In this document: positions 6,407-44,434 of the stretch, in pieces | How the letters are laid out: each line of letters opens with the position of its first letter | How positions within the stretch are numbered: the stretch's first letter is position 1 | From: an uncultured Candidatus Saccharibacteria bacterium | Lineage (GTDB): Bacteria > Patescibacteriota > Minisyncoccia > Phycocordibacterales > UBA918 | Assembly (NCBI GenBank): GCA_964402035.1 | Contig: CAYOAM010000001.1 | Span: 307,558-371,557, forward strand | Length of the DNA stretch: 64,000 nucleotides | Direction of reading: 5' to 3' | Program-made: the position numbers and the translations under genes | The notes under the pieces: model-generated | The model's input: only the letters and a program-made list of their open reading frames with translations | Database searches by the model: none | Told to the model about the DNA's origin: nothing

Positions 6407-6430
6407 TATAACTTTATTTGATCACAGAAT

Positions 6431-6467
6431 ACAGAAGCGCCAGCCTTAAGGCTGGCGCTTCTGTATT
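6431..6467. terminator. perfect 17-bp inverted repeat hairpin downstream of 6648..7970 gene
   Basis: ACAGAAGCGCCAGCC-TTAA-GGCTGGCGCTTCTGT; second palindrome ACTTGGGAGTTGAACTCCCAAGT at 6489-6511; T-runs weak. Confidence 0.4.
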
Positions 6468-6647
6468 TGCTACAGTTCAGATTCTGCACTTGGGAGTTGA
6501 ACTCCCAAGTCATCCCAACAAAGTACACATCTTCATAAACCTTCAAGTTCAAGGCGGCAAGTCAAAATACTACGAGACATATGGGGTTATATGGTGAGTA
6601 GTATTTTGATGCAGCCAACGCAGAAATTGAAGGTTTTGAAATGTGGA

Positions 6648-16900: not shown

Positions 16901-19900
16901 CGCTTGTGACCCATAAATGTACATGTGCGCAGTCGTCTCGATGTCTCGACCTCCTGCATCTTTTCCTGAAATACGTATTTCGTACTCACCTTCCTCAGCA
17001 AAAGATAGCGACCCACTCCAATTGCCATCCTTGTCAGTCCGTATATTTTCAGAATTAATATCTTTGAAACGTTTTTCCGATCGATAGTAGAAGCCACCAT
17101 CCACTTCCTGTCGCTTGAATGTTTCCCAGTTGATTTGACGCACAGTGCGCGTGAGGTTGGATACGGCAAGCGGCGCACCCTGTGTGTCCACTGTTTTTAT
17201 GCGAAGTGTTGTTGGTGTATTTTTGCTCGTATAATAATCATCGGTTTTTGCTCCAATATAAAAATCTCCTTTATGTACAATAAATGACTTCTGCGTGGAC
17301 ACCGACCGTCCGTTGATATCCCGCACGGTTATCGAGACCGTGATGAGCTTGCTGCCGACAACATCATCGCTACTAAAATACGACATCAAATCAAGTTGCC
17401 GTTCGATTGTTGCCTTCCCCGCTTCATCAAGCGTCGTTTCACCACGAAATAGGAAATTGTCGCCATACCCACACTCATAGCAGTAGTACCATCCACCGCC
17501 AAAATTGAAATACTCGTCAGTGTAGCGATCAAAATAATAATCTTGTGCCGTGACCGAGTACGACACCTTGCCTTCTGAGAGTGCGGTACCAAAATAGTAC
17601 TCTGCCGCAACATCAATGTGCATCGTATCGCGATCGACATACTCCTCCTTGGAGGCCTTTGCATCAATAGCAAAGGCGGACGGGACATACTCCTCAACAT
17701 CAAACCAGCCGTATGCGTCGAGACCTGAAATCGTGTAGGTGCCGAGTGGTGCATCGTCGGGCAAGGTAAACGACGTGTTAAATGTACCAAATGCACTCAT
17801 AACGAGCGGCACCTGATAGACCGTTTCTCCTAGAGCATTTCTCACCTCGAGGTTTACGTTGCCTTTGTTCCATATTTCATAACTACCGTCAAAGCCAATA
17901 CGATCAATACCACGGATATAGACCGTATGTCCGGGTCGATATATTGGTCGATCGGTATAGACATAAGTGCGCGAAGCGTTGCCTGCAGCACCACTGTATT
18001 GCAATTGATCTGCCCAATCGGTCACGATAGCGCTATCAGTCCCCCGTCGCACGACCACACCTGCAACGTTTGTGTCACTTACGACACGCGCAACACCTGA
18101 CGGATCGGTAGCGCCCACTGAACCTTTGGTAAACGCTGTATTATACCCACCGGCATACTGGTCGACGCTTGCTCCGACAACAGGATTCATTGACTTACTT
18201 TCCGTCACCCAATAGAGGTTACGTGCACGTTCAATATTTTTGTCACGCACAATATTTCTCTGTGCGTACTGACTTTGATCATTGCTCTCATATCTCGGTT
18301 CATATCGTTCGATTTCTTTCTTCCCAACAACGAGGTTGGTGACACTCACATAGGTGCGATCATATTGCGGTTTGCGCAACGTTCCTGACTGCATGTATGC
18401 ATTCATCGTCAAGAGTGGATGGCTAAAGGTCACCACATAGTGACCACGCACATCGGCAAAATAGTCCGCAAGATGTATTTGAAAATAATTGTTCACCCAA
18501 TAACGCTTTGGTAGTGGAATTTGAACACTCTTATCTTCTAGACACCCAACACCACTCGGTGGTGTAGTCCCAAGGTCATTTTGCATCGCGATCAGAGTGC
18601 TTTCCAAAAATGCCTCAGGTGACATGCGGCATACGTTCATGTTGACGTACTCCATGTTCTCCGTCGCATACGTCAACGTTGTTTTATCAGGCGTCGTGAC
18701 GTTGTATTGAGGCTGCATGTTGTGGAAGCGTACATACGATTCCTTTGCTGCTTCTGTTTTAAACGACAGGTCTACTGATGCTCGTGCATCAAATACATCT
18801 GTGAGCGTTAGGTTTACCGTGTACTTAGTCTCTGGCAATAGACCGTATCGGATGTTTGTTTCAAATTCTCCGGCACCACACTTGTAGTATGGACTTGCTT
18901 CGCTCACAAACTGTGAATTCGACCAACGACCAAACACTATGTAGTCACTCGCCTTTACATACGAGGAGAGCCCCTGCTCACTCGGATCCTTAATAGGTGC
19001 ATTGGTACAGATATACATGCCATCGAGCGGCGCGCCCGACGCTCCCTGCGCTGGCAATGTCCGCAAAATATTGAACGTTGGATAGGAATGAAGTGGTACT
19101 TTGATCGGTTCTTGATTGACGCGCAGACCATCAGTCGTCATCAAGCGCTCGAGATTGAGATCAAATGAAAGATCGCGTGCGATTTTTTCAGGATCAAATG
19201 AAAAGATAAGAGTCCTGGTATCTGGCTCTTTTTCACATTCAGAGCCGAGCATGATGGTCTCATTGTTTTGATCGACTTTGCAGCGATCCGCATACGCAAC
19301 AGAACGCAGGCCCGTTGCATACATGCGCGACTGATCTTTATCTATGTTTTCAAAAAAAGTGAGCACCAATGTCCCCTGCGGATCAAGAAAATCGGGTCGT
19401 GCAAGTGATGTACGATCTGATTCTGCACGCACACCTGCAACCACACTCGGAACTGCTATACGTTGCTGCCTCACTTCAGCAAGGTTTTGATTGCCGGCAA
19501 GCGGTACCGCACCTTCGATTGAAAACTCATACGCTGTTTCAAAATCCCATACATTTTTGCGTCCATGCCGATCTGCTTTTGCGCGTACAAATACCTTGCT
19601 GCGATCCACCTCGGTCACTGATTTCTTGAGTTTGGTATCGTAGCGTGTTTGCTCACCGTACGTGACATTGACCGGGACGGTATCACCTGCTGCATTGCGA
19701 ACCATAACTGCTTCTGCAGTCTTTTCCAAATCGACCGATTGATTGAAATCGACAATGATGGGTGATCGATACCCCACAATGCCTTCTGAAACAGATACGT
19801 AGCGCAATGGTCGCGTGGTAAACGTATGTGTTGTCGGCGCGACAGCAAGCCCATCGACTGACGTCAAACCTTCCCCTATGTCGACGGTGTATGAAGACGA

Positions 19901-20620
19901 AGGGATCAAGGTCGTCTCCGGAATAAATTGCAAGTTGCGCGTGCTAATCCATTTAAAATGTCCTGGTGTCTCGGGAGTGATCGTGATCGGAATTTCTTTT
20001 AGCTCCTGCTCACTGAGAGTAGTGAGCGGCACCATTGGTCGATTGAATAGTATCGTGATCTCGGTATCTTCGTGAGATTCACCCTCGGTCGCGGGCAAGA
20101 TGGCGAGTACTTTTGGATCTTCATCAACATAAAAATCTCCGGACATTTCGAGTGCATCCGCTTTGAGATTGACCGCATAGTACGTACCAGTTTTCAGCGG
20201 ATCGGCTGGATCAAAATAGATCATCCCTTCCTCGGTATCAGTAGTCCATGTGCCCTTCACTTCAGGACTAAAGGAGATGCTTGCTTGCGCAACAGCGTCA
20301 GAGACACCGTTAGGTACCTTGACTGGTATGGTTGCGCTCTGTGATATTTTTTCCGGCACAAAAGCAAATACTGTGGAGTATTTTTTTATTGCCACCGCCT
20401 CTTGTCGCTCATGGAGCGCCAATCCCAAAATAGCTATAGCGACGAGTGCAGCAATGCTCGTCATGAGATAGGTGTGTGTATTGAAGTACGACACAAATCG
20501 TTCTTGCACAGTTGGTGTAGCAGTGTTTATCGGGACCGTAGGTATCGGCGTAGAAGAAACCACTTCATTGGGTACAATGTCCGTCGTTGGTTTTGCTACT
20601 ATCCCCTCTTTTTCCTCCAT
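13952..20620 (-). CDS. alpha-2-macroglobulin family protein, thioester-containing, membrane-anchored (2222 aa)
   Basis: YPYGCGEQ thioester motif; N-terminal TM anchor; very large multi-MG-domain architecture typical of bacterial A2M (YfhM-like). Confidence 0.9.
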   Translation of the reverse strand: MEEKEGIVAKPTTDIVPNEVVSSTPIPTVPINTATPTVQERFVSYFNTHTYLMTSIAALVAIAILGLALHERQEAVAIKKYSTVFAFVPEKISQSATIPVKVPNGVSDAVAQASISFSPEVKGTWTTDTEEGMIYFDPADPLKTGTYYAVNLKADALEMSGDFYVDEDPKVLAILPATEGESHEDTEITILFNRPMVPLTTLSEQELKEIPITITPETPGHFKWISTRNLQFIPETTLIPSSSYTVDIGEGLTSVDGLAVAPTTHTFTTRPLRYVSVSEGIVGYRSPIIVDFNQSVDLEKTAEAVMVRNAAGDTVPVNVTYGEQTRYDTKLKKSVTEVDRSKVFVRAKADRHGRKNVWDFETAYEFSIEGAVPLAGNQNLAEVRQQRIAVPSVVAGVRAESDRTSLARPDFLDPQGTLVLTFFENIDKDQSRMYATGLRSVAYADRCKVDQNNETIMLGSECEKEPDTRTLIFSFDPEKIARDLSFDLNLERLMTTDGLRVNQEPIKVPLHSYPTFNILRTLPAQGASGAPLDGMYICTNAPIKDPSEQGLSSYVKASDYIVFGRWSNSQFVSEASPYYKCGAGEFETNIRYGLLPETKYTVNLTLTDVFDARASVDLSFKTEAAKESYVRFHNMQPQYNVTTPDKTTLTYATENMEYVNMNVCRMSPEAFLESTLIAMQNDLGTTPPSGVGCLEDKSVQIPLPKRYWVNNYFQIHLADYFADVRGHYVVTFSHPLLTMNAYMQSGTLRKPQYDRTYVSVTNLVVGKKEIERYEPRYESNDQSQYAQRNIVRDKNIERARNLYWVTESKSMNPVVGASVDQYAGGYNTAFTKGSVGATDPSGVARVVSDTNVAGVVVRRGTDSAIVTDWADQLQYSGAAGNASRTYVYTDRPIYRPGHTVYIRGIDRIGFDGSYEIWNKGNVNLEVRNALGETVYQVPLVMSAFGTFNTSFTLPDDAPLGTYTISGLDAYGWFDVEEYVPSAFAIDAKASKEEYVDRDTMHIDVAAEYYFGTALSEGKVSYSVTAQDYYFDRYTDEYFNFGGGWYYCYECGYGDNFLFRGETTLDEAGKATIERQLDLMSYFSSDDVVGSKLITVSITVRDINGRSVSTQKSFIVHKGDFYIGAKTDDYYTSKNTPTTLRIKTVDTQGAPLAVSNLTRTVRQINWETFKRQEVDGGFYYRSEKRFKDINSENIRTDKDGNWSGSLSFAEEGEYEIRISGKDAGGRDIETTAHMYIYGSQAVAAPPNNSYELDLEVEKTSVDVGDTATLLIKSPYEKAKVLITAERGTVYDYWIADVVGGLYKHSFPVKSSYAPNMYVAALLISPNPEVKFGSVRYDVGVKEHALDVAVSSNKTTYLPGEDVVLSVETKDNLGNPVSAEVSLAVADLSVLALKGNPKKNPLVFFYDGFPLSVSTASNLKNILYEVAIPLGTKGGGGANPDDLSKKKRGLFKDTAYWEASVITDENGKGTVKFTLPDNLTTWQIESLGVTKDTKLGVDYKEFTTKKDLMAVPLKPRFVVPGDTFSLGAQVFNQTDHATTVDVQLDSTSLEFLGDKTDAVKIAAGESKTVYFDVRAPKNKKAGEHIFTFTAKDGTFEDSVEQSISITPNTTFETVATANFTSADTATEYIYIPKEVISNEGGLTIHANATMAVFLTDALNYMVTYPYGCGEQLASALSTIATLKSALKVPNVVGSFENIEYEGVRYDVDTVVAQGLSRIYEVQTFDGGFAYYKGMEPDLFLTTHVALTLLNLQDAGYTIRDGVLDNALTYIEMHAADAYRMYPDDTHKDTVIFAEYVVRRARGTDTALTQYIKTFIADTPYIQERISSKSLTYLAILTYDSYTRSEVSKVYTALLGRIDIDGRGAYLKNPVQFESWGVSQTAITDTALLLKALVVHDDEHPMIGNILRWILAGRDKDGVWGGTHNTFVVVDAMVDYLKWQHESESEFSLRGLLDGAEIFVHNFTPKNIWETFTHVISIDSFEREKLLPLTFERTKRNEQKNNFYYDMALKYFLPVESLPPRDEGITITRDLYAYDAANTKNSTPVSSAQVGDIVRGKITLSIPGVYSHIAVEDIIPAGFEIVNFNLNTEDQSLQNQDGEYGEGQKGYDNDAMGYVVPPDNMFIRAFDRIESTFTSPQTAQIFGAIRDLGGEYKKVARKLWPSHVESHDDRVFLYIDTLSPGVYEYEYFLRALVPGTFQHMPARAEELYFPEVFGRTEGATFTITE

Positions 20621-22365: not shown

Positions 22366-22422
22366 TTCATTCTTCCATTCTTTTGACCTCATTCTATGCC
22401 ATTCTCCATTCCCCATTCTCCT
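22366..22422. repeat. CATTC(T)/GAATG pentanucleotide microsatellite (~8 copies)
   Basis: ccCATTCTttCATTCTtcCATTCT...CATTCTcCATTCccCATTCT seen directly. Confidence 0.6.
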
Positions 22423-22519
22423 CTTATTGCAAGGACAGAAAGGAAACTAAGATGATGTTTTTGCGTTCCTGGACATTCGTAAAGTCGCAAAAAGAGACAA
22501 AACAATCGTAACTGTCCAC

Positions 22520-22590
22520 ATTCACTCAAGCGTTCACTGCCAAATGGGTAGTATGCAAAGAGGGTGGTGAGATAAGCAATGCGCACAAAA
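22520..22590 (-). pseudogene. degraded rhs fragment (homologous to the LLAYYPFGSQRL segment of the main RHS protein)
   Basis: translation ...LFAYYPFGSERL... and nucleotide similarity to 30860-30910/24380-24420 regions. Confidence 0.45.
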
Positions 22591-22774: not shown

Positions 22775-23089
22775 TTATAATCCATCAACAGCAGTTGTTA
22801 CTTTTATGACAATGCCTTCACCATTAAAGTCTATACTGCAGTCAACTCCGTTTTGTAGAAGATATATATGCTTTTCGTCGCTCGAGCGCATATCGATATC
22901 CTGACCATCATTTAGTAACCCACTCATAATATGATCTACTTGATCTCTTTGCATACCCACCTTGATATCGTTACAACGCTGTCGTATATCACTCAACTCT
23001 GGATATACAGTGAGATAAATTATAAATATCAGAAAAATTATTATTGGTAATCCTACTGCCATTCCAATGTACTTAATAATTTTTTTCAT
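22775..23089 (-). CDS. small membrane-anchored protein, candidate immunity protein for orphan rhs toxin tip 3
   Basis: 104 aa, N-terminal TM, AT-rich, starts 3 bp after orphan tip 3 stop. Confidence 0.5.
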   Translation of the reverse strand: MKKIIKYIGMAVGLPIIIFLIFIIYLTVYPELSDIRQRCNDIKVGMQRDQVDHIMSGLLNDGQDIDMRSSDEKHIYLLQNGVDCSIDFNGEGIVIKVTTAVDGL

Positions 23090-23091
23090 AT

Positions 23092-24141
23092 TTAATCTTC
23101 TTCACGTTCACCAGAAAGTGTGTTTTTTAGACTGTTAAGTGCATTTGATAATTGACTCAATACTCTACTAAGAGCAGACGTTGCATTGGGGTCAATCGAC
23201 CTACCAAGACCTGCTGTATAGGCGTTGTCATTCAAGTTTGTTATCGAGTTGTTACCAACTCCAGATTGTGTGAGAAGATTTGTAGCAAAGTTATTACTAT
23301 TATGTTGTCCGCTGACATTCGGATTGCCAAAAACTGAGTATTTACCAACAACTTCTGGTGAACTATTGTAGCTATTTACTATGGATGCTTCAAATTCCTC
23401 CGAGGTCATCCCATCCGGGGGTTCAATAGTTTGAATACCGCTATATTGATCACGAGAAAGTCCAAAATCACTGCCGCGATTAACATCCTTGAATAAGTCC
23501 CCTGTAACAAAATTCTCTGTATACCCTCCTAGTGTGACTCTTGAGTAGTCATCAACCCCATCAATTCTTGGTAGTGCATTTGGATTGTCAGGAGTAATGA
23601 GTACAAACGAATGGGCACCAATTCCTCCAATTACCGCTACATCAATTGGTCTGCTTGCCAACTCTACTTTCTCACCTGTAGGATCAAAAAGTATAAGCGG
23701 ATTATTTCTCGCATACGAATAAGTGTTGAACTGTTGTGGGTCTAGCAAGAATTGATTAGGATTGTCACGACTCGCTGGATCCATCGATATCCATTTTCCA
23801 TAATTGCTGTTCAAGTATCTTGCTCCTGCATATGTAAGCTCAGTCTCAGGATCATAGTCATGCCCTGTATAGCGATTCGTTTGTGTAAAGGAACTGGAAG
23901 TGGTGGTACCTATGAATCGTATCTCATCTAAGTATACCGTCTGGGTGGTGGCAGATTCAATGTTAAGAGCGAGGGTATTGTTGTATGAGGAGATTCCAAG
24001 GTCGGAGAGTGGTATGGATACTTCTTGCCAGGTGTTGGTGAGGTATCCACTTGGGAGGTAGTTTTCAATAACGCGGTTTTGGATCACTTGACCAAGGTGG
24101 TTGGTGAAATAGATATCGAGCTCTCCGGTGTTCGTGCCCAT
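23092..24141 (-). CDS. orphan RHS C-terminal cassette 3 (conserved 160-aa RHS-shell terminus + unique C-terminal toxin domain, unassigned)
   Basis: N-terminal 160 aa ~identical to main RHS residues MGTNTGELDIYF...YSYxRNNP; divergent tail after DPTGE. Confidence 0.75.
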   Translation of the reverse strand: MGTNTGELDIYFTNHLGQVIQNRVIENYLPSGYLTNTWQEVSIPLSDLGISSYNNTLALNIESATTQTVYLDEIRFIGTTTSSSFTQTNRYTGHDYDPETELTYAGARYLNSNYGKWISMDPASRDNPNQFLLDPQQFNTYSYARNNPLILFDPTGEKVELASRPIDVAVIGGIGAHSFVLITPDNPNALPRIDGVDDYSRVTLGGYTENFVTGDLFKDVNRGSDFGLSRDQYSGIQTIEPPDGMTSEEFEASIVNSYNSSPEVVGKYSVFGNPNVSGQHNSNNFATNLLTQSGVGNNSITNLNDNAYTAGLGRSIDPNATSALSRVLSQLSNALNSLKNTLSGEREED

Positions 24142-24400
24142 ATAGAGCCAGAATGAGAGGGTGCTGTATGGGGTGGTGTTGAAGGAGCTATGGGTATATG
24201 AGATACCTCCCCATGGAGATGTGTATTGGGCTTTGAGGCTGTGGGTACCTGCGTATGTGGTACTGGTGGAGTTTGTGAGGGTGACCGTCCATGATCCGTT
24301 GTCCGTCCATGGTGAGGTGAAGGAGTCTGCATAGATGTATGAAGAGATGGTGCTTTGACTTCCCCCTCCTTCACTGAGGCGTTCACTGCCTTGGAGCAGA
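23650..24400 (-). repeat. rhs homology block copy D (shared with 30190-31025)
   Basis: near-identical nucleotide runs extending upstream of the orphan start codon in a disrupted frame. Confidence 0.7.
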
Positions 24401-24484
24401 TAATTCCTAATACTTCTCCTATGTATTTCGTTACTATTTCTTCTTGCATCTCTCAGGAACTAAAGGAATACGAGGTAATCAATG

Positions 24485-24700
24485 TTACTTGTCTTCGAGT
24501 CTAAATTTTACACCATGCTCATCCTTAGTCGCTCTTTCAAAAGCCAATTTCCACTCTTCCCAGAATGCTGGGTCGGCGGTTCCTCCATCTTGAAGAATTG
24601 ACATTCCGCCTAGCATCCCACCAATTTCACTTGACTTAGTCTTTTGGTAGTAATTTTCTAGGAAATAGAACATTGCTCTGTATGCTTCTTTTTCATTCAT
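24485..24700 (-). CDS. small cytoplasmic protein, candidate immunity protein for orphan tip 2
   Basis: 71 aa, begins 2 bp after orphan tip 2 stop. Confidence 0.45.
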   Translation of the reverse strand: MNEKEAYRAMFYFLENYYQKTKSSEIGGMLGGMSILQDGGTADPAFWEEWKLAFERATKDEHGVKFRLEDK

Positions 24701-24701: not shown

Positions 24702-25766
24702 TTAATCTTGATCTTGATCTGATCTTGGTAATCGTCTTTGATGCACTGGTTCAGGAGCCGACAATCCTGTCTCAGAATTGAATGTTCTCGGAGTGACGTT
24801 TTGCCCTCCGTTTATGATTTGACCGTCTCTAGTCTGCACCCAAGTCTGACTACCATTTTTGTTTAATCTTGCCGACCAGGTATTTCCCCACTTATCAGAG
24901 CCAAGAGTAGTACTTGGATCATCTGCAACATTCTGCAGAAGCTGTCTATTCTGGGGAGTGTCAGCGAGATGCCCCACCTCGTCACGGAATATATGAGATA
25001 ACCTATTTTCAGGTATCAGGTGCCTTATGTCTGGCTTCCCATCCAAAGAACCGATTACAATACTAAATACTATTTTCTGGTTCTCAGAAAGACTATCATA
25101 ATTTTCTTGTCCAAACACATAGTACCCAACAGGGTTGGTACTCTGCGGAGCCAAAGCAGAGTCAAATGTTTCGTCTGGTGTATAGGCGTAGTTTGCGTCA
25201 TCAAGTGCCAAGCTGCCAAATACCGCCAGTGCAATGCTTACCAATATTGGCACTGGATTTTCACCATTATTATCGACGAATACTATCGGGTTGTTTCGAG
25301 AGTAACTATAGCTATTCAACTGTTGCGGGTCTCTCAAAAGAAAATGTTGTCGTATTCCTTTTGCCTCTAGCGAGTTAGCATCTCCAAGTAACAATGACAC
25401 CGGATCCTGCGCAGTGAACCGTCCTGTGTTTCCATCATAATACCTCGCACCCATGTACGTGAGACTTGTTTCTTCGTCATAGTCATGCCCGGTATATCGA
25501 TTGCTCTGTGTAAAGGAACTGGAAGTGGTGGTACCTATGAATCGTATCTCATCTAAGTATACCGTCTGGGTGGTGGCAGATTCAATGTTAAGAGCGAGGG
25601 TATTGTTGTATGAGGAGATTCCAAGGTCGGAGAGTGGTATGGATACTTCTTGCCAGGTGTTGGTGAGGTATCCACTTGGGAGGTAGTTTTCAATAACGCG
25701 GTTTTGGATCACTTGACCAAGGTGGTTGGTGAAATAGATATCGAGCTCTCCGGTGTTCGTGCCCAT
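24702..25766 (-). CDS. orphan RHS C-terminal cassette 2 (unique tail with a hydrophobic helix and HxxD-containing domain, unassigned)
   Basis: N-terminal 165 aa match main RHS incl. RYYDGNTGRFTAQDPV; junction VDNNGE replaces DPxGL. Confidence 0.75.
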   Translation of the reverse strand: MGTNTGELDIYFTNHLGQVIQNRVIENYLPSGYLTNTWQEVSIPLSDLGISSYNNTLALNIESATTQTVYLDEIRFIGTTTSSSFTQSNRYTGHDYDEETSLTYMGARYYDGNTGRFTAQDPVSLLLGDANSLEAKGIRQHFLLRDPQQLNSYSYSRNNPIVFVDNNGENPVPILVSIALAVFGSLALDDANYAYTPDETFDSALAPQSTNPVGYYVFGQENYDSLSENQKIVFSIVIGSLDGKPDIRHLIPENRLSHIFRDEVGHLADTPQNRQLLQNVADDPSTTLGSDKWGNTWSARLNKNGSQTWVQTRDGQIINGGQNVTPRTFNSETGLSAPEPVHQRRLPRSDQDQD

Positions 25767-26165
25767 ATAGAGCCAGAATGAGAGGGTGCTGTATGGGGTG
25801 GTGTTGAAGGAGCTATGGGTATATGAGATACCTCCCCATGGAGATGTGTATTGGGCTTTGAGGCTGTGGGTACCTGCGTATGTGGTACTGGTGGAGTTTG
25901 TGAGGGTGACCGTCCATGAGCCTGCGTCTGTCCATGGAGACTGCCAGCTGTCGGTGTATAGGTATGACGATGTGGTGGTGTCTCCTCCCCCTTCATCGAG
26001 ACGTTGGCTGCCGAAGGGATAGTATGCGAGGAGGGTGGTGAGGTATCCATCATCATCGGTTTGTGCTTGGGTGCTGCCGAGGTGGTCGAGGTGGGTGTGA
26101 TAGGTGCTTGCAGATCCGCCTGTGCCAGAGACTGATGCTATGAGGGTGTCACCTGCGTAGAGAAA
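25290..26165 (-). repeat. rhs homology block copy C
   Basis: ~0.88 kb near-identical to 30190-31025 including ~400 bp upstream of the orphan ATG (ends at AGDTLIASV-equivalent). Confidence 0.7.
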
Positions 26166-26211
26166 AAGGTACCTGACACCCTATTCCAAAAAGTGACACT
26201 TATTACTATTT

Positions 26212-27504
26212 TTATGAAGGAGACGGAATTGTTTCATTTTTTGAACTTTCTACAATAAACTTTGCACGTTCGTAAAGCTCATCATAAGTAATGATTTCAA
26301 TATTTCTGGAATCACGCCGAAAAAGTTCAAAGGTTTTTGCTTTGATTAAAGCTTCTTTATTTTCTCCTCCAAACTGCCTTGAATGACCAATAACCAAAAT
26401 GGCTTTTGGATCATAAGATTTTTGTTTAATTGGTTTCCCTATATCATCAAAGTGACTTGAAGGATCTGACTCTGCCTTAACTTGCAGACTAGCTTTTTGC
26501 TCCAGGATTTGCGACAACGCAGACGTTAAATCATCTGATAATTTCCAAGCATTTGAACGGTTTTTGTCTCTGCCATACAATTCCGTATCAGGTTTTTTCA
26601 ACTCAACTAAAACAGTAAACTTATTACACCCTAATAAGAAATCAGAAACTGCAGCTTCCTTACCAGACATATCGACTCCAGATACAGTCACCTCTCTTTG
26701 TAAAATAGAGAGGAATCTATAATCTAAACCATAACCAAAAATCCAATTATTTTCTTCAAAAAAATGTTGCCACGCAGCTTCTGCTCCAAGCTGTTTAATG
26801 TTGTTCTCTGTTTTATATTTATCGACATATCCATCTTCCTCTAATAATTTCCTAAATATTTCCAGCTTACTTTTTCGGTAGCCAATATTAACAATATCGT
26901 TTGAAGTAATTATTCCACTACTAAGTAGCTCCTCAATAATTTTGTGACCATCCTCTCTCATTAGTAGAGTAGTAATCTTCTTTTTTGTATCCTCATCAAT
27001 TGTAGGCAAGTTGTCTGTATTGAGTGAAATTTTTCGTTCGTTTATACTTCCAAGATCTAATGCAGATATCATCTGCATATAGCCGATTATTTGTTTAAAA
27101 AAACCATATGAGAATGTGATTTGTTCTTCTTGGGGTTCGTACCCAGTTTTCTTGTAGTACTTAAAACGTTTGACAGAAATACTTTTGATTTCGTTACTTT
27201 CTTTGATGAACGTAAAGGTTGTTTTAATCTTATTTCTTACTCGCTCGGGGTGCTCAAACTCAATTGCATCAGGAACTCCATTATCATCACTGGAGACGAC
27301 GGTAAAAAACTTTCCAGCACCATTTTTAAATTGATGCGTATATAGAGTATCTCGAACGTAATTATCAACGATTTCTGATTCAGTAGATTCTTCGTATTTA
27401 TGTAAACCCATATTAGTACCTAGTATGCACCGATAAATTAGACTTTCAAAGTCTATCATTAACGTCTTACGCCGTATCGCAAAAGCACTGTTACTCGAAG
27501 GCAT
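26212..27504 (-). CDS. Shedu-like DUF4263-type PD-(D/E)xK nuclease (putative anti-phage defence protein)
   Basis: QREV...SDFLLG...VLVELKKP E/D/ExK motif set, C-terminal ILVIGHSR...EIITYDELYERA; ~33% GC, embedded in rhs cassette array. Confidence 0.45.
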   Translation of the reverse strand: MPSSNSAFAIRRKTLMIDFESLIYRCILGTNMGLHKYEESTESEIVDNYVRDTLYTHQFKNGAGKFFTVVSSDDNGVPDAIEFEHPERVRNKIKTTFTFIKESNEIKSISVKRFKYYKKTGYEPQEEQITFSYGFFKQIIGYMQMISALDLGSINERKISLNTDNLPTIDEDTKKKITTLLMREDGHKIIEELLSSGIITSNDIVNIGYRKSKLEIFRKLLEEDGYVDKYKTENNIKQLGAEAAWQHFFEENNWIFGYGLDYRFLSILQREVTVSGVDMSGKEAAVSDFLLGCNKFTVLVELKKPDTELYGRDKNRSNAWKLSDDLTSALSQILEQKASLQVKAESDPSSHFDDIGKPIKQKSYDPKAILVIGHSRQFGGENKEALIKAKTFELFRRDSRNIEIITYDELYERAKFIVESSKNETIPSPS

Positions 27505-27575
27505 TAATCATGACTGCCCCACTTTGTATTAACAAATTAGGAGTCAGGCACCTTAGTCACGATTATCTGACACAA

Positions 27576-27938
27576 CTAGAGTAGATCAATTTCTGCTACA
27601 AGTGTTAACTCAAGATCTTCTACTTCAGCACTGGTCATTGCTTTTTGTTTATTTAAGAAACCTTCCTTGATAAGTAAGGGAACTATTCTTAGTATTGTAT
27701 CTCTACTCACATCCTTAATTATAAATTCATGTACATCAATACTTGAAAAGCCTTTTCTTTCTATCGAATCCTGTACTTCCTGAATGTGGCGATACGGCTG
27801 AATAGCAGACACATTGTAAAAAGAACCATCCAACTGGAGATAAAAGTCTCTCAAATTTTTTTGTTCGACCTCCCACTCAATTGCCGCGTCAGTATAACCA
27901 GTTGTATTCTTATGAAAGTATATCTTTAATTTTTTCAT
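27576..27938 (-). CDS. candidate immunity protein for orphan tip 1
   Basis: 120 aa, AT-rich, begins 3 bp after orphan tip 1 stop. Confidence 0.5.
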   Translation of the reverse strand: MKKLKIYFHKNTTGYTDAAIEWEVEQKNLRDFYLQLDGSFYNVSAIQPYRHIQEVQDSIERKGFSSIDVHEFIIKDVSRDTILRIVPLLIKEGFLNKQKAMTSAEVEDLELTLVAEIDLL

Positions 27939-27941: not shown

Positions 27942-28985
27942 TCATCCTTCTATTTTTTTAGTCTTAATCTTTTCTAGCTCCGCTTGGAACTGCTTTGGCG
28001 TCAAGTTGCCGTTTGGTACTATTTCGTAATGATTTGGATTATCTCCTCGTTGGATAATTTTGAGAGTATCAGGTAGTGAAGTTATTTGATTGGCACCACC
28101 AAATTTCCCAAGACTTGAAGCGTCTGTATTTACAGAAATACCTCTAATATCAGCTACAAAACCATCAGCATCAATCTTGATTTCGTTTGGTTTTATACTG
28201 AATAGATTATTCCCTGAACCACCCCTAAACACAGGCACTAAGTTATCTCCATTCCTAACCAAAGAACCCACATTCGCCTTATTGCCAAACGCCATGAAAG
28301 CCAACTGTAGCGAGAGCTTCTGTGAAGGACTCATGTTGTCATAACCCGGCACCAAAGGATTAGTTCCCGATGGAACATTTGTTAGGTCGGTCGATTCAGC
28401 CGGCGAATACGCATAATTAACATCAGTTGCAAAATTAACAATACAAGCAAATGCAATCGCGAGTCCTAGCGGTAGGATATCACCTCCAGGGTCATACACA
28501 ATCATTGGATTATTACGTCCGTAGCTATATGTATTAAGCTGTTGCGGGTCTCTAAGTAAGAGTTCCAACGGTCGTCCATACTGTGATTCCCAAGTACGAG
28601 CTCCTAGATCAAGATTTGCCGGATCCATCGATATCCATTTTCCATAATTGCTGTTCAAGTATCTTGCTCCTGCATATGTAAGCTCAGTCTCAGGATCATA
28701 GTCATGCCCGGTATATCGATTGCTCTGTGTAAAAGAACTGGAAGTGGTGGTACCTATGAATCGTATCTCATCTAAGTATACCGTCTGTGCAGTAGCAGAT
28801 TCAATGTTAAGAGCAAGAGTGTTGTTGTATGCACTGATACCAAGGTCAGAGAGTGGTATCGAGACCTGTTGCCAGGTGTTGGTCTCAAAACCGAGAGGAA
28901 GATAGTCTTCAATGACACGATTTTGGATGACTTGACCAAGGTGATTGGTGAAGTATATATCAAGCTCTCCGGTGTTCGTGCCCAT
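27942..28985 (-). CDS. orphan RHS C-terminal cassette 1 (unique tail; FRGG...E pattern faintly ART-like, unassigned)
   Basis: N-terminal 153 aa match main RHS; tail diverges after YDPGGD. Confidence 0.75.
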   Translation of the reverse strand: MGTNTGELDIYFTNHLGQVIQNRVIEDYLPLGFETNTWQQVSIPLSDLGISAYNNTLALNIESATAQTVYLDEIRFIGTTTSSSFTQSNRYTGHDYDPETELTYAGARYLNSNYGKWISMDPANLDLGARTWESQYGRPLELLLRDPQQLNTYSYGRNNPMIVYDPGGDILPLGLAIAFACIVNFATDVNYAYSPAESTDLTNVPSGTNPLVPGYDNMSPSQKLSLQLAFMAFGNKANVGSLVRNGDNLVPVFRGGSGNNLFSIKPNEIKIDADGFVADIRGISVNTDASSLGKFGGANQITSLPDTLKIIQRGDNPNHYEIVPNGNLTPKQFQAELEKIKTKKIEG

Positions 28986-29085
28986 ATAGAGCCAGAATGA
29001 GAGGGTGCTGTATGGAGTGGTGTTGAAGGATGATGGGTGTGTATATGAGATACCTCCCCATGGAGACGTGTATTGGGCTTTGAGG
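28520..29085 (-). repeat. rhs homology block copy B
   Basis: 28986-29085 identical to 30611-30710 upstream of orphan ATG; ends abruptly at GATTAATCGTGACTG. Confidence 0.7.
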
Positions 29086-29089
29086 CCGA

Positions 29090-29521
29090 TTAATCGTGAC
29101 TGTCACCTTTCTTTCTTGCTGCCCCAAGTATTATCATACTTAAACATATTGGGGGAACTAAAATTATCAATAAGTTAATGATCCAATAGTCTGAATTGGG
29201 GAGTTTGATCAGGTCGCCAGAGAAAAACAAAACTGCATATACTGCACTAAAAATAACAATTAAGTTTGAATTTACTTTATTAGGAGCTTCAATCAATGAA
29301 ATTAATTTGAATATTACTAAAAAAATTAACGAACTTACAGATGAGATACAAAAGAATATAAATAGTAAATATGCTGTTAATTTAATTACGTTAGCATCTA
29401 CGACTCCATCTAACATATAAGAATACAAACCCGTATAGTAATGAATTGCCATAAAGACAGGACATGCCACTACCGCAGCGATCCAGCCACCTATAAAAGT
29501 ATTTAATGAATTTTTTCTCAC
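29090..29521 (-). CDS. polytopic (4-TM) membrane protein, candidate cognate immunity protein of the main RHS toxin
   Basis: 143 aa, 4 hydrophobic helices, ~30% GC, 17 bp downstream of RHS stop. Confidence 0.55.
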   Translation of the reverse strand: MRKNSLNTFIGGWIAAVVACPVFMAIHYYTGLYSYMLDGVVDANVIKLTAYLLFIFFCISSVSSLIFLVIFKLISLIEAPNKVNSNLIVIFSAVYAVLFFSGDLIKLPNSDYWIINLLIILVPPICLSMIILGAARKKGDSHD

Positions 29522-29538: not shown

Positions 29539-32500
29539 TTAGTAATCAACATTTACATTGATTGGTTTGTTCCAAGTATTGTTAAACCATTTATGGAACG
29601 AGTTATTATTACTGGTCAAATCAATACATCCTGCCGAACCCGCGGTCCAGCCTCCATGAATATAATATCCAGTATCTCCGCTTGAATTACTTAATTCAGT
29701 CCGTTGGGTTCCCCAAGCGGCAGGACCTCCTGGCCAAGGCCCAATTTTTCCCCCTATGAGTGGTATATTTTGAGTGATTCCGCTTACTAGTGAGCCAGCT
29801 TTCCTTGCACCAGAAACGTCAGCCCAATTCTGTGTTTTGTTAGGGTCGGCACTCCATATTCCCTCTGGAATTGGATCATTCCCACTATTCCCAGAAACCC
29901 CTTCCCAACTAAGCCCAGGCATAGCAATACCGTACGAGGTATCGTATGCAGAGAGAGTCTTATTATCAAAATTTAATTCAAGATTCTGGCCAGGAAGAAT
30001 AATATAATTTCCGGCTTTAATTTTGTCTGGGTTGTTTATTCCATTAGCTTTAGCAATTTGACTGATTCCTAGTGATGTTCCATACTTTTCGTTTATCTGC
30101 TTTTGGATATGCGTAAGTGTATCTCCTTTTTCAATTTCTCCTGAATCAACATTAAATAATCCAAGTGGGTCTATAAATCTGAGAGGGTTATTTCTGCTAT
30201 ATGCATAGTAATTAAATTGTTGAGGGTCGTACAGAAATGTTTCTGGACTCTGCTGACTCACTGGATCCTGCGCAGTGAACCGTCCTGTGCTTCCATCATA
30301 ATACCGTGCCCCCATGTACGTGAGACTTGTCTCTTCGTCATACTGGTGCCCTGTATATCGATTCGTTTGTGTAAAGGAACTGGAGGTTGTGGTACCCACA
30401 AATCGTATCTCATCTAAGTATACCGTCTGGGTGGTAGCAGATTCAATGTTGAGTGCAAGGGTGTTGTTGTATGCACTGATACCAAGGTCTGAGAGTGGTA
30501 TAGATACCTGTTGCCAGGTGTTGGTCTCAAAACCGAGAGGAAGATAGTCTTCAATGACACGATTTTGGATGACTTGACCAAGGTGATTGGTGAAGTATAT
30601 ATCAAGCTCTCCGGTGTTCGTGCCCATATAGAGCCAGAATGAGAGGGTGCTGTATGGAGTGGTGTTGAAGGATGATGGGTGTGTATATGAGATACCTCCC
30701 CATGGAGACGTGTATTGGGCTTTGAGGCTGTGGGTACCTGCCGATACTGGAGTGGTGGCGTTTGAGAGGGTGACACTCCACGAACCTCCATCGGTCCATG
30801 GTGAAGTGAGAGAGTCTGCATAGAGGTATGAAGATGTGGTGGTGTCTCCTCCCCCTTCATCGAGACGTTGGCTGCCGAAGGGATAGTATGCGAGGAGGGT
30901 GGTGAGGTATCCGTCGGTGTCGGTTTGTGCTTGGGTGCTGCCGAGGTGATCGAGGTGAGTGTGGTATGTGCTTGCAGATCCGCCTGTGCCAGAGACTGAT
31001 GCTATGAGGGTGTCACCTGCATAAATATGTTTGGTTGCAGATGAGCCATACTCATAGAGATTTGATGGATAGAATGTCGTGCCAGAAGGACCGGTCTTTT
31101 GCGTACGTTGTCCGGTGTGGTCGTATGCATAGGTGACGGTCGTGCCACTTGATACACTTTGCGTGAGGCGATTTTGGTAGTTCCAGGTGTTCGCAAGACC
31201 TGCGCTAGTTGACGCAAGGTTTCCGTTGGTATCGTATGCATAGGTAACTCCGTTGATACTCGTTGCCGCATGAGGGTTCGCATAATTGCTTCCGGTATTG
31301 CCGCTATAGGTGTATGCACCAACATCTGATTTTGAAGTGATGTTGCCGATAGCGTTGTATACGTATGTCTGCGTGTATGGTGTGCTGCTTGCGCCGGTTG
31401 TCGAGGCACTGGTGAGGCGGTAGAGGTCATCGTATGTGTATGTGGTGGTTGCAGCACCATGGGTATCGGAGCGATCCACGATTTGGGTTATGTTCCCGAC
31501 GGCGTCATAGGTGTATGAGAGATTTTGGACTGTCGCTGCATAGTATGGATACGTGAGTGTCGTTGAAGTACCACTTCCGGTACTTGAAGCAAGTACAAAT
31601 GTGGAAGTTGTGGTACTCCATGCACCTTCTGCATTCCAAATGTCCCAAAACTTGATGCGCCAGTAGAATGTGGTTGACGAAGCAAGTGCTGATCCTGCGT
31701 ATGCGATATCAGGACTGCGGCCACCTTGTGCCGTGGTACTCGATAGCGTTGTTTTTGTTGAATCCCAATATGAGGAGGTGAAAGCGGATGAAGTTGAAAC
31801 TTGTATCTGGTATGAAGCTGCAGTATCGGTTGCATTGCTGTCGTTAAAGATTGCAGAAAACTCAGGGGTGCCATCGGTCACACTCGTCGGATTTGTTTGT
31901 CCTTCGGCAAGGAGAGATGATGGTGCAGTCGGTGCAGAGTTGGTAGCAGATGCAGTATAGGTAGCGTATATAGATACTTTGCGGGCGAAATATGTTGGTG
32001 AAGTTATTGGGTTTGACCAATCAGGATAGGTGATCGATTTAAGCGCGTATTGGTTTGTTGATCCTGTATCCCAATAGACTGTTGCAGAGCTGTCGTGTCC
32101 CTGCCAGAGCCAGTAGGTGGTGCCAGACGCAAGACTATAACTTGGCATGGTCATATCTACCCATGATGCAGTCGTGCCCACCCCACCGGTGACGCTTGAG
32201 GTCGCGAGCGGAGCGTTTGGTGCACCACTCGAATCAGAATAAAGTGCTGCGATTTTGTTCATGGTGCCTGCTGTCGTCTTTTTGGTATACGCAGTTATCT
32301 TGGAGAGCGTACCGTTTTCACTGTTCATAGAAAACTTTGAACCTATGTAGTTCCAGGTGTCAGCATTGGTGCCACCGATCGTACCATAGCCGAAGGTGGG
32401 ATCTACGCGTACCGGATAGGTTGCGGTATCTAGATACTCTTGCGGGACAATCACGCGCAGTGCCCCTTTCTCATACGAGAGTGATCCCCAGACCGCCACA

Positions 32501-35500
32501 CCTTTTGCGTCAACAATCTTCGGGCGGAAAATATGAAAGACTTTTCCCGATTTAAATTCCCCATCTTTCTTTTCTTTGTGGTACACGGCGTATGAACCCA
32601 CAATATTTTCCGGGCGACGTACAACCACGACACCTTCTGCGTCTGTACATGCAGTTTCGGTGCATGAGAGTTTTTCTTCGAAAGTTTCTTCGGTCAGAGG
32701 TGGCTGGTACAAAAAGTCGAGATCGTCGGTTCCTGAAAGTGTAAAGGTGAATGTATTTTTTTGTGGTTTCTCATCGAGGACCACTTCAATCTCAAAACCA
32801 CCCGCCTCCATACCTTCTCGGGGAGCAAGTGGGTACGCCTCAACCGATTCGCTTCCCCCATCCCATTCCACAACGTTTCGTAATGGAGAATAATATGGGA
32901 CCGCAAACGGAAGTTCGTAACGAACAGAAAGATCAACCGCGCCGCTCCAGGTATTTAGGCGTACTTCTGGCAGTGATTTGTCGACGTGCGCAGTGTATGT
33001 ATCAAACCTGGTATCGGCATCAGAGATAAATTGATACGTACGTGCAGTCTCGCGAGGAGTTTTCTGTGAAAGTCCATCTGGTATAAACAGTATTTCTTCC
33101 TTCAGTACCGGCTCGAGTGCTGAGTCTGTCGTCGTCGCCGTGGTGGTTCCCAATAGATCTCTTTGTACGGTTGTAGTGGTGGCAATCTCATTGGCAGTAT
33201 CTTCATGCAGTACGGTGTCGGTTGTAGTAGCATCGAGGACTTCAGGTGTCGTGGTAGGCACTGCTATGGACGGAGACTCTGCGTCGGTGAGGGAGTTTTC
33301 CAACACCTGCATTAAATCTTCAAAGTCAGGTGCGTCAGTGGTGTGTACTGCTTCATTTTCCATCTCAACCGCTCCCATAGTTTCGGTAGCATCAGCTAAG
33401 AGTGCTGCTTCCACACCACGCAGTTCATCTCCGCCTCCCCCTGTAGGTGGAGGCACCGACGTCACGATACTGGAAAGACGATAGAGCGCGTTTGCATCGT
33501 ATGTCTTTGTGGTACTTGCTCCATTGCCACGCTGTTCATAGACCACCAGTCCGGTAGGTGCATAATCAATATCGCTGATAAGTGACTGCCACGACCCACC
33601 GCTCTCTTTTTGCTGTACTTTTTCAAGCTGTCCTGCGCTGTTGTATATATATGCCACGCGTGATAGATCAGGAAAGACAATCTCGGTTTGCTGTCCTTGT
33701 CGATCGTAATCATAGGAAATGACAAAGGTCGAGGTTGCAATGGTCGTTGTCGCAAAATCTGGGAGGCTATTTGGGGTATACGCGTATGAAGTCGTTGCAG
33801 CTCCTAGACTCACTGCTTGGCACAACTGCATTTTGCCATTTGTGCAGGTGTCATAGGTATAGGTTATTTCTGTACCTGTTCCTCCGGTGTAGTTTTCTGT
33901 GAGCGGACGGTTAAGATCGTCGTATGTGCGCACTATCACCTGTCCCTTAGGATCAGTGGTGGTCGCGACATTTCCTGCAGCATCGTATGCAAAACTCCAG
34001 TTGCCAAAGGTGTTATCACTTGCTGCATGGAGATCTTGCATAGTGAGACGACGAGAGAGACCGTCATAGGTAATGGCACGTACATTCCCTAATGCGTCGG
34101 TGATTGTTGCAAGGTTGTCGTTGGTCGTCCACAGATATGCGGTCGCGTACGTACTGGTGCTGTTGTATTCAGTAGTGGTCGAGAGGCGACCAAATGCATC
34201 ATACGAGAACATCTTCTTATTGCCGATCGGATCAAAAACTGTTTCAGACCACTGGTCGTAGACCGTTGCGGTTGTGCCCACAGCAGTTGTGGAAGTTGCC
34301 ATGCGTCCAAGCGCATCATACACATAGGTTGTATACAGATTGCTTTGCGAAGTCGACGCAGTACGTGCAGAGCCAGTATCAAAGTACGGCAATGATTCCT
34401 TTTCCAAGAGTCCATTATTTCCATACACAAGATCACGTACAGCGTACTGATTGGAGTCCTCCGCCTCGACACGTGTCTGCATTTTCCTGCCAAATCCATC
34501 TGCATACTCGTATGTGTCCGTTGTCGTAGCGGTATTTAAATATGACCTTGTGTTAACCGACACCGCACCTTGTGTGTCAGTATAGGTGTATGTGGTTTTA
34601 GTAACTGGTGTTCCGGTCTGTGGGTCGGGAATCTTTTCTTCTTTCGGTCGATCAAATGCATCATAGACGATAACGGATGTACGCCCGTTTGGATCGGTCG
34701 AAGTACTTACCTTTCCACTTGAGTAATCATATGTCTGTATCGTGGTGTACCCCAATGGGTTTGTGGTAGTTGCAGGATACAAATTTAGTGCGTCATAGGT
34801 ATACGATGTAGCCTTATCACGAGCATCTTTATACTGTGTCACTAGCCCGTAACTGTTGTATGTTTTTTCTTCATCAATGTACGTACTGCCACTCACCCAC
34901 GATTCACGCTTGGTGAGATTGCCGTCGGTTACATTACCAAGGCTTTGATTGTCATAATACAAACGATCTTCTTTTATCTTGGTTGCTGCATAGTTGAGCA
35001 ATCGTTGCGATGATGGCAACCCTACGATGTACGCTGTGGTATTTGTGGCATAGGTATAGGCGACCGTGCGCTTGTCCGTATCTGAGTCAACATAGGTACC
35101 ATCCATAGAGGCATCTACACTTCCCCACTCAGTAATCGATGTTGTATTTCCATAGCTGTCATATGTAAATGACTTAGCCAGATCACGATGATCGCCATCA
35201 CCATCGTATGAAAGCACCACCTCACTAAGCGGAGAGACAAAAGTTGCATTATCGCCTCGATCAGCCTCAAGCCAATTGGTCCATTGAATATTGTATAGAT
35301 TGTTCGTACGATCAAATAAGTCAACGCGATATGATAGACCGATACGCGCAATGGCGTCTCCAGACTCATTACTGCTGGTACTATTGCCGTTCCCTTGGTG
35401 CTGATAGGTAACGGACCGCGAGAGTCCACTATTCTTCTCAACCGCACCAAAGCCAGCAAATTTTCTGTCGCGCGGACTGCTTGAGGAAAAATAAAAATCA

Positions 35501-43066: not shown

Positions 43067-43837
43067 TTACACTTGCTTCGGAGTGCACAGATCTGCTTTT
43101 TTCATAATATAATCGTGTGCTTCATCGACAGAGTCAACCAGGTGGTAGATCGCCATATCTTCTTTGTGTATTGTCTTGTACTTTTTGTAGAGCGTTTCAT
43201 CTATCCACTTCAGAAGTGGGCTCCAATAGTCCTTTCCGTAAAGGATAATCGGAATTTTTGAGATCTTTTTAGTTTGTACCAGTGTAATAAGTTCAAACAG
43301 CTCATCAAGCGTACCAAAACCTCCAGGGAAATAGACATACACTTCGGAGGCAAAAGAGAGCATCACTTTGCGGGTGAAGAAAAAATGAAAATGTTCTGCA
43401 TCGGTCGTATAGGGATTGAGACGCTGCTCCATCGGAAGCTCAATATTGATACCTACTGATTTTCCCCCCACCTTAAATGCACCCACGTTTGCAGCTTCCA
43501 TAACCCCGGGGCCTCCGCCGGTAATGACGGCAAAACCGCTTTTTGCAAGTTTTGCCGCAAGTCCTTCTGACGCTTTGTAAATCTCATCGCCAGCCTCACA
43601 ACGAGCCGTACCAAAAAAAGTGACGGCAAGTCCGTAGCGGCGCAATATTTCAAAACCAGAGACAAACTCGGACATGATGCGGAATATGCGCCATGACTGT
43701 ACGGCATCACCATTGGGATCAAGCAGATCCGACATCACGCGACATGCAGGGTATTGTGTCTTGCTCGGATCAGGTATGTCCGCCATTTTGCCTTTGCGTA
43801 AAGAAAATTTCATAGAACATACGAATGCTATACGCAA
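43067..43837 (-). CDS. LOG family protein (cytokinin riboside 5'-monophosphate phosphoribohydrolase-like, TIGR00730)
   Basis: ITGGGPGVMEAAN and YFPGGFGTLDELFE motifs; start may be internal Met. Confidence 0.85.
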   Translation of the reverse strand: MRIAFVCSMKFSLRKGKMADIPDPSKTQYPACRVMSDLLDPNGDAVQSWRIFRIMSEFVSGFEILRRYGLAVTFFGTARCEAGDEIYKASEGLAAKLAKSGFAVITGGGPGVMEAANVGAFKVGGKSVGINIELPMEQRLNPYTTDAEHFHFFFTRKVMLSFASEVYVYFPGGFGTLDELFELITLVQTKKISKIPIILYGKDYWSPLLKWIDETLYKKYKTIHKEDMAIYHLVDSVDEAHDYIMKKADLCTPKQV

Positions 43838-43843
43838 ATGATA

Positions 43844-44434
43844 TCACAGCCACGGTATCTCATACGAATCAAATTCGGGGAGAAGTTTTTTATCATAGAG
43901 CAGTCGCGACGTAACTTCCGCATGTGACTTTGCACCAGTAAGTGCATTGTGCGGTGTTGGTTCTTGCGGTATGCCGCAATAATTTAAAATGGCATCAAGA
44001 TCAAGTGCAGAGCGATGATTTTTAATTGGTGGCGTGAGTCCGCGTTTGACCATATGCATCCATGCAAGTGTATGCGTATCAATCGTACGATACGCAAAAG
44101 GCCAGTCCGTATGTCCGGCTCGTCCTGCCGCAGCTTTAACATAGTCGCGATCAAACGAGACATTTTGTCCAACAAATGTCTGATCCTCGGTCTCTTGTGC
44201 CCATGCAATGAATGCATGCACCATATCGCCCTCGCTCGGTTTCTCTGGATCCGTGATTTCTTCTTTAGTAAAACCACAGACGGCTAAAGCTTCGTCCATG
44301 ATGTGTGCACCATCCCAGATGTGACACTCCATATAAAACTGTCGTGTAGGATTTGAAAAATCGATAGCGCCTAAAGACACCATCGAGTGTTTCTCATAAT
44401 CGGTCCCGGACGCCTCTACATCAACGATAAGCAT
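43844..44434 (-). CDS. DEDDh 3'-5' exonuclease domain protein
   Basis: DVEASG (Exo I), FDRDY (Exo II), HNALTGA (Exo III) motifs. Confidence 0.75.
   Translation of the reverse strand: MLIVDVEASGTDYEKHSMVSLGAIDFSNPTRQFYMECHIWDGAHIMDEALAVCGFTKEEITDPEKPSEGDMVHAFIAWAQETEDQTFVGQNVSFDRDYVKAAAGRAGHTDWPFAYRTIDTHTLAWMHMVKRGLTPPIKNHRSALDLDAILNYCGIPQEPTPHNALTGAKSHAEVTSRLLYDKKLLPEFDSYEIPWL

Follow-up and report, generated by a model that had tools for sequence, protein, structure and literature searches.

A predicted type I Shedu nuclease gene in an Rhs orphan-cassette array of a Patescibacteria bacterium

Two Shedu systems with solved structures serve as points of reference for the gene reported here, a Shedu (SduA) gene on the minus strand of a 64,000-nucleotide (nt) stretch of contig CAYOAM010000001.1 from an uncultured Candidatus Saccharibacteria bacterium (the whole stretch is called the window below), where it lies between the cassettes of an Rhs toxin array. 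The Shedu of Bacillus cereus B4264 (Protein Data Bank (PDB) 8TI8/8TI9) is an autoinhibited tetramer, in which the aspartate of motif II is held off the active site (Gu et al., bioRxiv 10.1101/2023.08.10.552793). Activation of that enzyme involves a tetramer-to-octamer transition. The gene of the window protein belongs to a Patescibacteria host and is found inside an Rhs array. The two proteins are only 24-26% identical, in the nuclease domain, and since no sequence similarity is detectable between their N-terminal regions the window protein is not assignable to the sPC4/Whirly (type 1A) class. The Escherichia coli SduA (PDB 8PS4/8PS5; bioRxiv 10.1101/2023.08.10.552762) is much more distant (phmmer E=0.028), and its N-terminal clamp that senses free DNA ends is not a feature that can be inferred for the window protein. 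Far closer is the subfamily described by the PADLOC profile PDLC00392, which matches the window protein over its full length (E=5.2e-144) and in which the relatives share 60-88% identity with it and are 387-403 amino acids (aa) long. Unlike the window copy, these relatives lie beside restriction-modification (R-M), Thoeris, AbiE or serine recombinase genes, and an Rhs array is seen only in this lineage.

The surroundings of the gene also have known counterparts. In the Rhs orphan arrays of Enterobacteria (Salmonella, E. coli) a main rhs gene is accompanied by start-less fragments that keep part of the core and carry distinct toxins, each followed by an immunity gene, and classical descriptions of Rhs arrays hold only toxin tips and immunity genes. 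The window array resembles these in having a main rhs gene, start-less core-bearing fragments, distinct toxin tips and immunity genes, but differs from the classical arrays in that an unrelated 1.4-kb defence gene interrupts the series. Antibacterial effectors of the type VI secretion system (T6SS) and anti-phage systems are found together in hotspots named 'genomic armories' in Pantoea (bioRxiv 10.64898/2026.08.01.741415), and works cited in that preprint point to comparable cases in Vibrio GMT islands, Serratia and Pseudomonas. The window resembles those armories and islands in that one variable locus holds both an anti-phage gene and a secreted toxin system aimed at bacteria. The former are, however, T6SS effector hotspots and mobile islands of Gram-negative Proteobacteria, whereas the window has a Sec-type Rhs orphan-cassette array in Patescibacteria, with no mobility gene in the locus and one defence gene only. 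An anti-phage gene beside antibacterial toxins is thus already known in principle, and the new particulars are the Sec-type Rhs orphan array, the Patescibacteria host and the placement of the gene between cassettes.

Identity and limits of the gene

A first-pass annotation of this DNA had assigned the open reading frame (ORF) to DUF4263/Shedu from its motifs, and this assignment proved right. The Pfam search that it had proposed gave a match to PF14082 (SduA_C, formerly DUF4263) that reached from position 4 to position 159 of the 159-position profile and scored 98.9-99 bits, where the gathering cutoff is 27, and in the PADLOC search, also proposed there, 20 SduA models matched, of which PDLC00392 was the best and covered essentially the whole protein. 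When a profile of 36 homologs was compared with the PDB sequences, only the B. cereus Shedu (8TI8/8TI9) was found (E=4e-22). The active site of that enzyme consists of E204, D249, E264, K266 and Q295 (Gu et al., bioRxiv 10.1101/2023.08.10.552793), and in a HMMER alignment to 8TI8, with a two-residue offset in the deposited chain allowed for, these residues align with E211, D257, E270, K272 and Q301 of the window protein (399-aa numbering), all five of which are invariant in the alignment of the 36 homologs. Motif I is E211 in GAEAAWQ (codon 26779-26781), motif II is D257 in SDFLLG (26641-26643), motif III is E270 and K272 in VELKK (26602-26604 and 26596-26598) and motif IV is Q301 in SQILEQK (26509-26511), all on the minus strand. 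Every peptide string quoted in the first-pass annotation is present in the ORF. From its proposed E...D...ExK constellation, the aspartate of SDFLLG and the ExK of VELKK stood as motifs II and III, while the glutamate of QREV, although conserved, is not motif I.

The DUF4263/SduA_C PD-(D/E)xK nuclease domain spans aa 211-380 (26272-26781, minus strand), as delimited by the Pfam match, by comparison with 8TI8 and by the motifs that Gu et al. list, and its predicted fold is like that of the solved Shedu structures. It is preceded by 210 residues (26782-27411, minus strand) in which a helix, a five-stranded beta sheet and a second helix are predicted (aa 11-117), followed by a helical linker, and which presumably form a sensor or regulatory domain. 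The order of a long N-terminal region and a C-terminal nuclease, and the total of 399 aa, match the type I architecture, for which a mean length of 386 aa has been reported (Loeff et al., bioRxiv 10.1101/2023.08.10.552762). Shedu is a single-gene system, and consistent with this the neighbours vary across all the homolog contexts we examined and the conserved module is made up of gene and promoter only. By all the defining features that can be tested on sequence, the gene is an intact type I Shedu (SduA) nuclease gene, and as far as present evidence goes nothing in its predicted mechanism departs from known Shedu biology.

The ORF listing gives an uninterrupted frame of 430 codons on the minus strand (26212-27504), which the first-pass annotation had taken as the gene. 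The open frame is real, but most likely translation starts at its Met32 (ATG at 27411), giving a coding sequence (CDS) of 399 aa at 26212-27411. This start is favoured because the database copy of the gene is annotated as 399 aa, because the homologs span 387-403 aa, because the match to the PADLOC SduA profile starts at aa 36 and because nucleotide similarity to the nearest non-identical relatives, at the loci L100 and L011, begins only at 27449. In a three-way alignment of the window with these two loci, conservation starts exactly at a TTGAAA hexamer and continues through CATACT up to the Met32 ATG, whereas the ATG of the 430-aa ORF itself falls in DNA that is unrelated between the three. 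The 31-codon extension (27412-27504, minus strand) is therefore probably untranslated; it is unconserved in both relatives, the homologs start at the equivalent of Met32, and it overlaps the promoter-like site. The latter, TTGAAA-16 nt-CATACT at 27422-27449 (minus strand), was found by a consensus scan, lies 10 nt 5' of the Met32 ATG and would act as the promoter of the gene. Both hexamers are kept in the window, L100 and L011, and the sequence further upstream is unrelated.

The sole stretch common to the window and its nearest relatives is 26189-27449, which in blastn is 83.3% identical to L100 and 81.5% identical to L011 and L012, with the same end-points in all three; the L011 protein is 88% identical to that of the window. 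It contains the promoter-like site, the CDS and about 23 nt of 3' flank (minus strand), and thereby outlines a transferable Shedu module of 1.26 kb. Such a well-delimited module of promoter and gene is an addition from Patescibacteria, organisms with small genomes whose antiviral equipment is little studied. Comparison with the 88%-identical homolog gave a dN/dS of 0.044 at a dS of about 1.5, which shows that the gene is under purifying selection, and contigs from other samples (L002, L099) carry the locus at 99.95-100% identity. Together with the intact frame and the complete active site, these results argue for a functional gene. Low GC content had also been noted for the gene (about 33%, against about 48% around it). 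It is indeed AT-rich (34.1% GC, where the window as a whole has 45.1% and the rhs core 46.6%), but the four immunity genes of the array are equally so (31-40%), and low GC is hence a mark of all the variable parts of the array rather than of Shedu alone and was ruled out as a Shedu-specific sign of insertion.

Contexts of the Shedu relatives and of related Rhs arrays

The homologs of 60-88% identity include many proteins of Patescibacteria, Paceibacterota and Nomurabacteria named 'Shedu immune nuclease family protein', and their neighbours are of several kinds. A type I R-M system, a serine recombinase and Thoeris surround one homolog (P0008), AbiEii and a type III R-M system another (P0009), and an AlwI-type R-M system a third (P0007), while P0005 lies with two methyltransferases together with DUF4268 and DUF2726, and P0006 among housekeeping genes. 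In three close homolog loci (L003:4936-9182, L009:5722-9185 and L017:3931-6663) Shedu starts 1-5 nt after a restriction-subunit gene, encoding type I HsdR, type III Res or AlwI, and this spacing suggests that Shedu is co-transcribed with the R-M genes there. Among 5,499 Shedu genes, 602 lie inside R-M systems (Gu et al., bioRxiv 10.1101/2023.08.10.552793), and the idea that the products of restriction feed Shedu fits both this count and the tight linkage in the three homologs. The window copy has lost this linkage and would rely on its own promoter-like site. A large serine recombinase adjoins the Shedu genes P0002 (L011) and P0124 (L100), and beside the nearest relatives it was located at L100:370-1760 (split by a frameshift), L011:3-344 and L003:9187-10470, which hints that this subfamily travels on small recombinase-borne elements.

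Recurrence of the association with Rhs was examined from both sides. On the Shedu side, 80 species-representative loci were collected, together with as much as 10 kb of DNA to either side (63 of them with at least 5 kb on one side; 1.14 Mb of flanks) and 15 further Shedu loci were added, but tblastn (E<=1e-3) of the main Rhs protein, the three orphans and the four immunity proteins against these 95 loci gave no match. On the Rhs side, a metagenome scan with the core end yielded 24 related loci (266 kb), several of them with orphan arrays, in which 36 Shedu sequences found no match; an earlier scan of metagenomes with the very conserved pre-toxin segment had returned no loci. The immunity gene of orphan cassette 1, next to which Shedu lies in the window, has a single homolog (67%) among 5.8 billion proteins, and this homolog, on L098, again follows a CT1-like toxin tail. 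The homology between L098 and the window breaks off at 27586, shortly ahead of the immunity gene's stop codon. The pair thus occurs in L098 without Shedu and the module 26189-27449 occurs elsewhere without Rhs, which shows that toxin-immunity pair and Shedu module are independent units, joined only in this lineage. The gene that comes next in L098 (614-886) encodes an unrelated 90-aa cysteine-rich zinc-ribbon protein, not Shedu, which may be an immunity-like or an orphan gene.

Taken together, these results show that the association of Shedu with the Rhs array is genuine, though specific to this lineage and non-recurrent, and most likely the placement is simply a horizontal acquisition into a variable locus, that is, a by-product of gene transfer. 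The weight that had been put on defence genes riding in toxin arrays was accordingly overstated, as the association is confined to this lineage and co-location of toxins with defence genes has already been described elsewhere. The homologs, moreover, were not consistently paired with a specific rhs tail, which had been named as an observation that would speak against a defence role, but sit in defence contexts. Our literature search found no paper linking Shedu with Rhs.

Proposed origin, mode of action and alternatives

We consider it probable that the gene is a type I Shedu immune nuclease which was horizontally lodged in the variable Rhs array and stands outside Rhs function. We infer its oligomeric state and activation signal, that it acts against phages in this host, and how it was inserted. 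By analogy with the B. cereus and E. coli Shedu systems, it most likely works as they do. The protein would assemble into a homotetramer through its nuclease domains, and the N-terminal domains would hold the nuclease inactive on the host's own DNA. These domains would sense a nucleic-acid feature that is specific to infection, for example free DNA ends, and thereby license the nuclease to cut or nick the invading DNA, so that the cell would be protected from phages as well as from other DNA that is linear or mobile. As to its origin, a compact 1.26-kb module with its own promoter-like site would have been horizontally acquired and have come to lie with the toxin-immunity pair of cassette 1 on one side and the core-homology of cassette 2 on the other. 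The array would represent the variable region of a small genome that tolerates foreign DNA, which would explain the position, and Shedu would take no part in Rhs toxin or immunity function.

Proximity to the toxins could also mean that the protein belongs to the Rhs system itself and acts for orphan cassette 1 as an additional immunity protein, as a toxin with nuclease activity or in an accessory role, and the first-pass annotation had similarly offered a novel nuclease-fold immunity or toxin component as an alternative. The gene does adjoin the cassette-1 immunity gene, on the same strand and with the same low GC, and PD-(D/E)xK nucleases do occur as tips of polymorphic toxins. We regard such a role as highly improbable, since SduA profiles, which describe a defence system, match the protein from end to end and it has no match to the Rhs core or an Rhs family, no DPxGL junction and no secretion signal. 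The toxin tail and immunity gene occur on L098 without Shedu, none of the 95 homolog loci has Rhs, and the gene has a conserved promoter-like site of its own; a toxin or immunity role was rejected on the profile matches, the L098 pair and the homologs that sit in defence contexts and are never paired with an Rhs tail. Another, still very unlikely, possibility is a silent or decaying passenger, which arrived with foreign DNA and is no longer expressed or useful in the host. In favour of a passenger, the gene stands apart from the R-M genes and the serine recombinase with which its nearest relatives occur, but its 399 codons form an unbroken frame in which no catalytic residue is missing, and the low dN/dS, the conserved promoter-like hexamers and the near-identical locus in contigs from other samples speak for a maintained gene.

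The most serious alternative, although we hold it to be rather unlikely, is that Rhs orphan arrays in Patescibacteria and related uncultured bacteria are selected capture sites, or even the main armoury, in which anti-phage genes ride with toxin-immunity cassettes. Recombination between core repeats would then, in one event, add or remove antibacterial and antiviral functions jointly, and the Shedu promoter might also drive the start-less frame of orphan 2 and the immunity genes downstream. Such an arrangement is in line with the position of Shedu, directly after the cassette-1 immunity gene and about 30 nt before the open start-less frame of orphan 2, and with the T6SS effector and anti-phage co-location documented in Pantoea and, as cited in the same preprint, in Vibrio GMT islands, Serratia and Pseudomonas. 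It is kept alive by a second array that also carries defence-like genes (L107:1457-8453, JGI contig Ga0208904_1000093). In this related Rhs orphan array, two of the cassettes are followed by additional genes, among them those for a ThsB-type TIR protein (2174-2785; PF08937, 74.7 bits vs. a cutoff of 21.2) and a metallo-beta-lactamase-fold protein (6097-7005) that matches PADLOC PDC-M48B (1e-17) and LmuA. Defence-like passengers in Rhs arrays may be recurring. The case nevertheless rests on two arrays, the L107 genes are defence-like by domain only, and effector domains are common to toxins and defence systems. Furthermore, Rhs is absent from all 95 Shedu-homolog loci and Shedu from all 24 related Rhs loci, and the arrays L102, L111, L120 and L122 have no convincing defence match inside the array.

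Several observations weigh against a Shedu nuclease that reached the array by simple transfer and acts there on its own. The subfamily may normally work with an R-M system, which is absent at the window locus. The AF2 (AlphaFold2) model is mediocre, with a predicted local distance difference test (pLDDT) score of 61.8 and values below 50 for residues 227-265, which include the motif II aspartate D257. An insertion signature, in the form of a target-site duplication or a recombinase, was looked for in the window and none was found, and our literature search returned no paper on Shedu function in Patescibacteria. Finally, the defence-like genes of L107 leave some room, albeit little, for a non-random co-location of such genes with Rhs arrays. 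As candidates for the insertion route, a 7-nt GTGTCAG repeat that flanks the 1.4-kb insert at its two ends (27567-27573 and 26173-26179) was rejected as a target-site duplication because 9.5% of shuffles do as well, and recombinase-mediated insertion was rejected as the window lacks the serine recombinase of L100, L011 and L003 and the homology extends no further than the promoter. The window has no tRNA genes and no Rfam match.

The Rhs placement is so far an anecdote, and two arrays make no pattern. If polymorphic-toxin arrays outside Proteobacteria should prove to gather anti-phage genes regularly, the 'genomic armoury' idea would reach Sec-dependent Rhs systems, and orphan arrays would be a new place to seek unknown defence genes.

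The Rhs array and its chromosomal surroundings

All features of the array lie on the minus strand. The main rhs gene (29539-37995, 2818 aa) has a signal-peptide-like N-terminus followed by SpvB, FG-GAP and RHS repeats/YD shell (Pfam SpvB, FG-GAP, RHS_repeat and TEN_YD-shell) and ends in a C-terminal toxin with LysM and a YkuD-like domain. In this tip (29539-30300) LysM scored 26.3 bits (cutoff 20.9) and YkuD 18.1 bits, below its cutoff of 23.4, with an HGG...SAGCID motif visible. The gene downstream (29090-29521, 143 aa) encodes a hydrophobic protein and by position and sequence is the putative immunity gene. The LysM and YkuD-like tip followed by a hydrophobic product suggests a cell-wall-directed toxin (YkuD-like L,D-transpeptidase fold) with a membrane immunity protein.

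Three orphan cassettes follow, all with the TIGR03696 (Rhs_assc_core) core signature and with the 3' end of the core repeated at 79-100% identity in families of direct repeats, while each has a different C-terminal tip and then a small gene. Cassette 1 (27942-29086; 47 bits) joins a core-derived segment (28696-29086), which forms direct repeats with the main rhs gene, to a unique C-terminal toxin domain, and 3 nt downstream of its toxin ORF comes a 120-aa gene (27576-27938) that from this position is its likely immunity gene. The Shedu gene lies between the end of this immunity gene at 27576 and the core-homology of cassette 2, which begins at about 26163; this confirms the location between an immunity gene and the next orphan toxin given in the first-pass annotation. 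The 1.4-kb insert that carries Shedu thus interrupts the cassette series, and Shedu ends about 30 nt before the start-less frame of orphan 2. Cassette 2 (24702-26179; 66.7 bits, repeats 25477-26159) is composed of 139 core-derived codons with no start codon (25767-26179) and a 354-aa ORF with its own toxin tip, and the in-frame translation of the start-less part matches the main Rhs sequence ...YAGDTLIASVSG.... Its putative immunity gene, assigned by position as is that of cassette 3, encodes 71 aa (24485-24700). Cassette 3 (23092-24390; 60.1 bits, repeats 23852-24390) is followed by a gene for 104 aa (22775-23089), and a vestige of a further rhs core fragment with a YYPFGSERL motif is found at 22515-22574, within the ORF 22389-22586 (repeat family D6, 75% identical to 30850-30909).

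The frames 5' of the first ATG in the three orphans (28986-29086, 25767-26179 and 24142-24390) are open and core-derived with no start codon, as orphan cassettes typically are. The long ORFs that the repeated core shows in alternate frames (25709-26056, 24084-24449 and 30414-30860) arise from the repetition itself and were rejected as genes. A perfect 9-nt inverted repeat (AGGGTGTCA ... TGACACCCT, 22-nt loop) lies at 26143-26182, exactly at the junction of the Shedu 3' flank and the orphan-2 core, and its second arm is core sequence (GDTL codons).

Housekeeping genes for TyrRS, CysRS, DnaB, a class A PBP (PBP1) and a Ctp protease show that the window is chromosomal, and the nearest named homologs of its TyrRS (58-63% identity) are all from Patescibacteria (Kaiserbacteria, Paceibacterota, Parcubacteria), the host being Parcubacteria-like. 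The array itself is flanked by housekeeping genes, namely SppA, MsrA and alpha-2-macroglobulin on one side and by DoxX, ROK kinase and PGI on the other. A PADLOC scan of the array proteins and 10 flanking ORFs gave no other convincing defence match; Shedu is the sole recognisable defence gene nearby and the Rhs array the only obviously variable region, and the window copy does not reside in a defence island, a location that is typical but not defining for Shedu. At 43067-44434 a LOG/SLOG-family protein and a DEDDh exonuclease, adjacent to each other, match PADLOC profiles weakly or in part (PsyrA, 1e-6 over 49 residues; DEDDh, 5e-17), which probably reflects similarity at the level of the fold and not a defence system. 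The alpha-2-macroglobulin gene near the array (13952-20620) encodes 2222 aa with MG2, A2M, bMG6 and bMG10 domains, and together with the Rhs locus it takes up about 23 kb of the 453-kb contig, in what appears to be a very small Patescibacteria genome.

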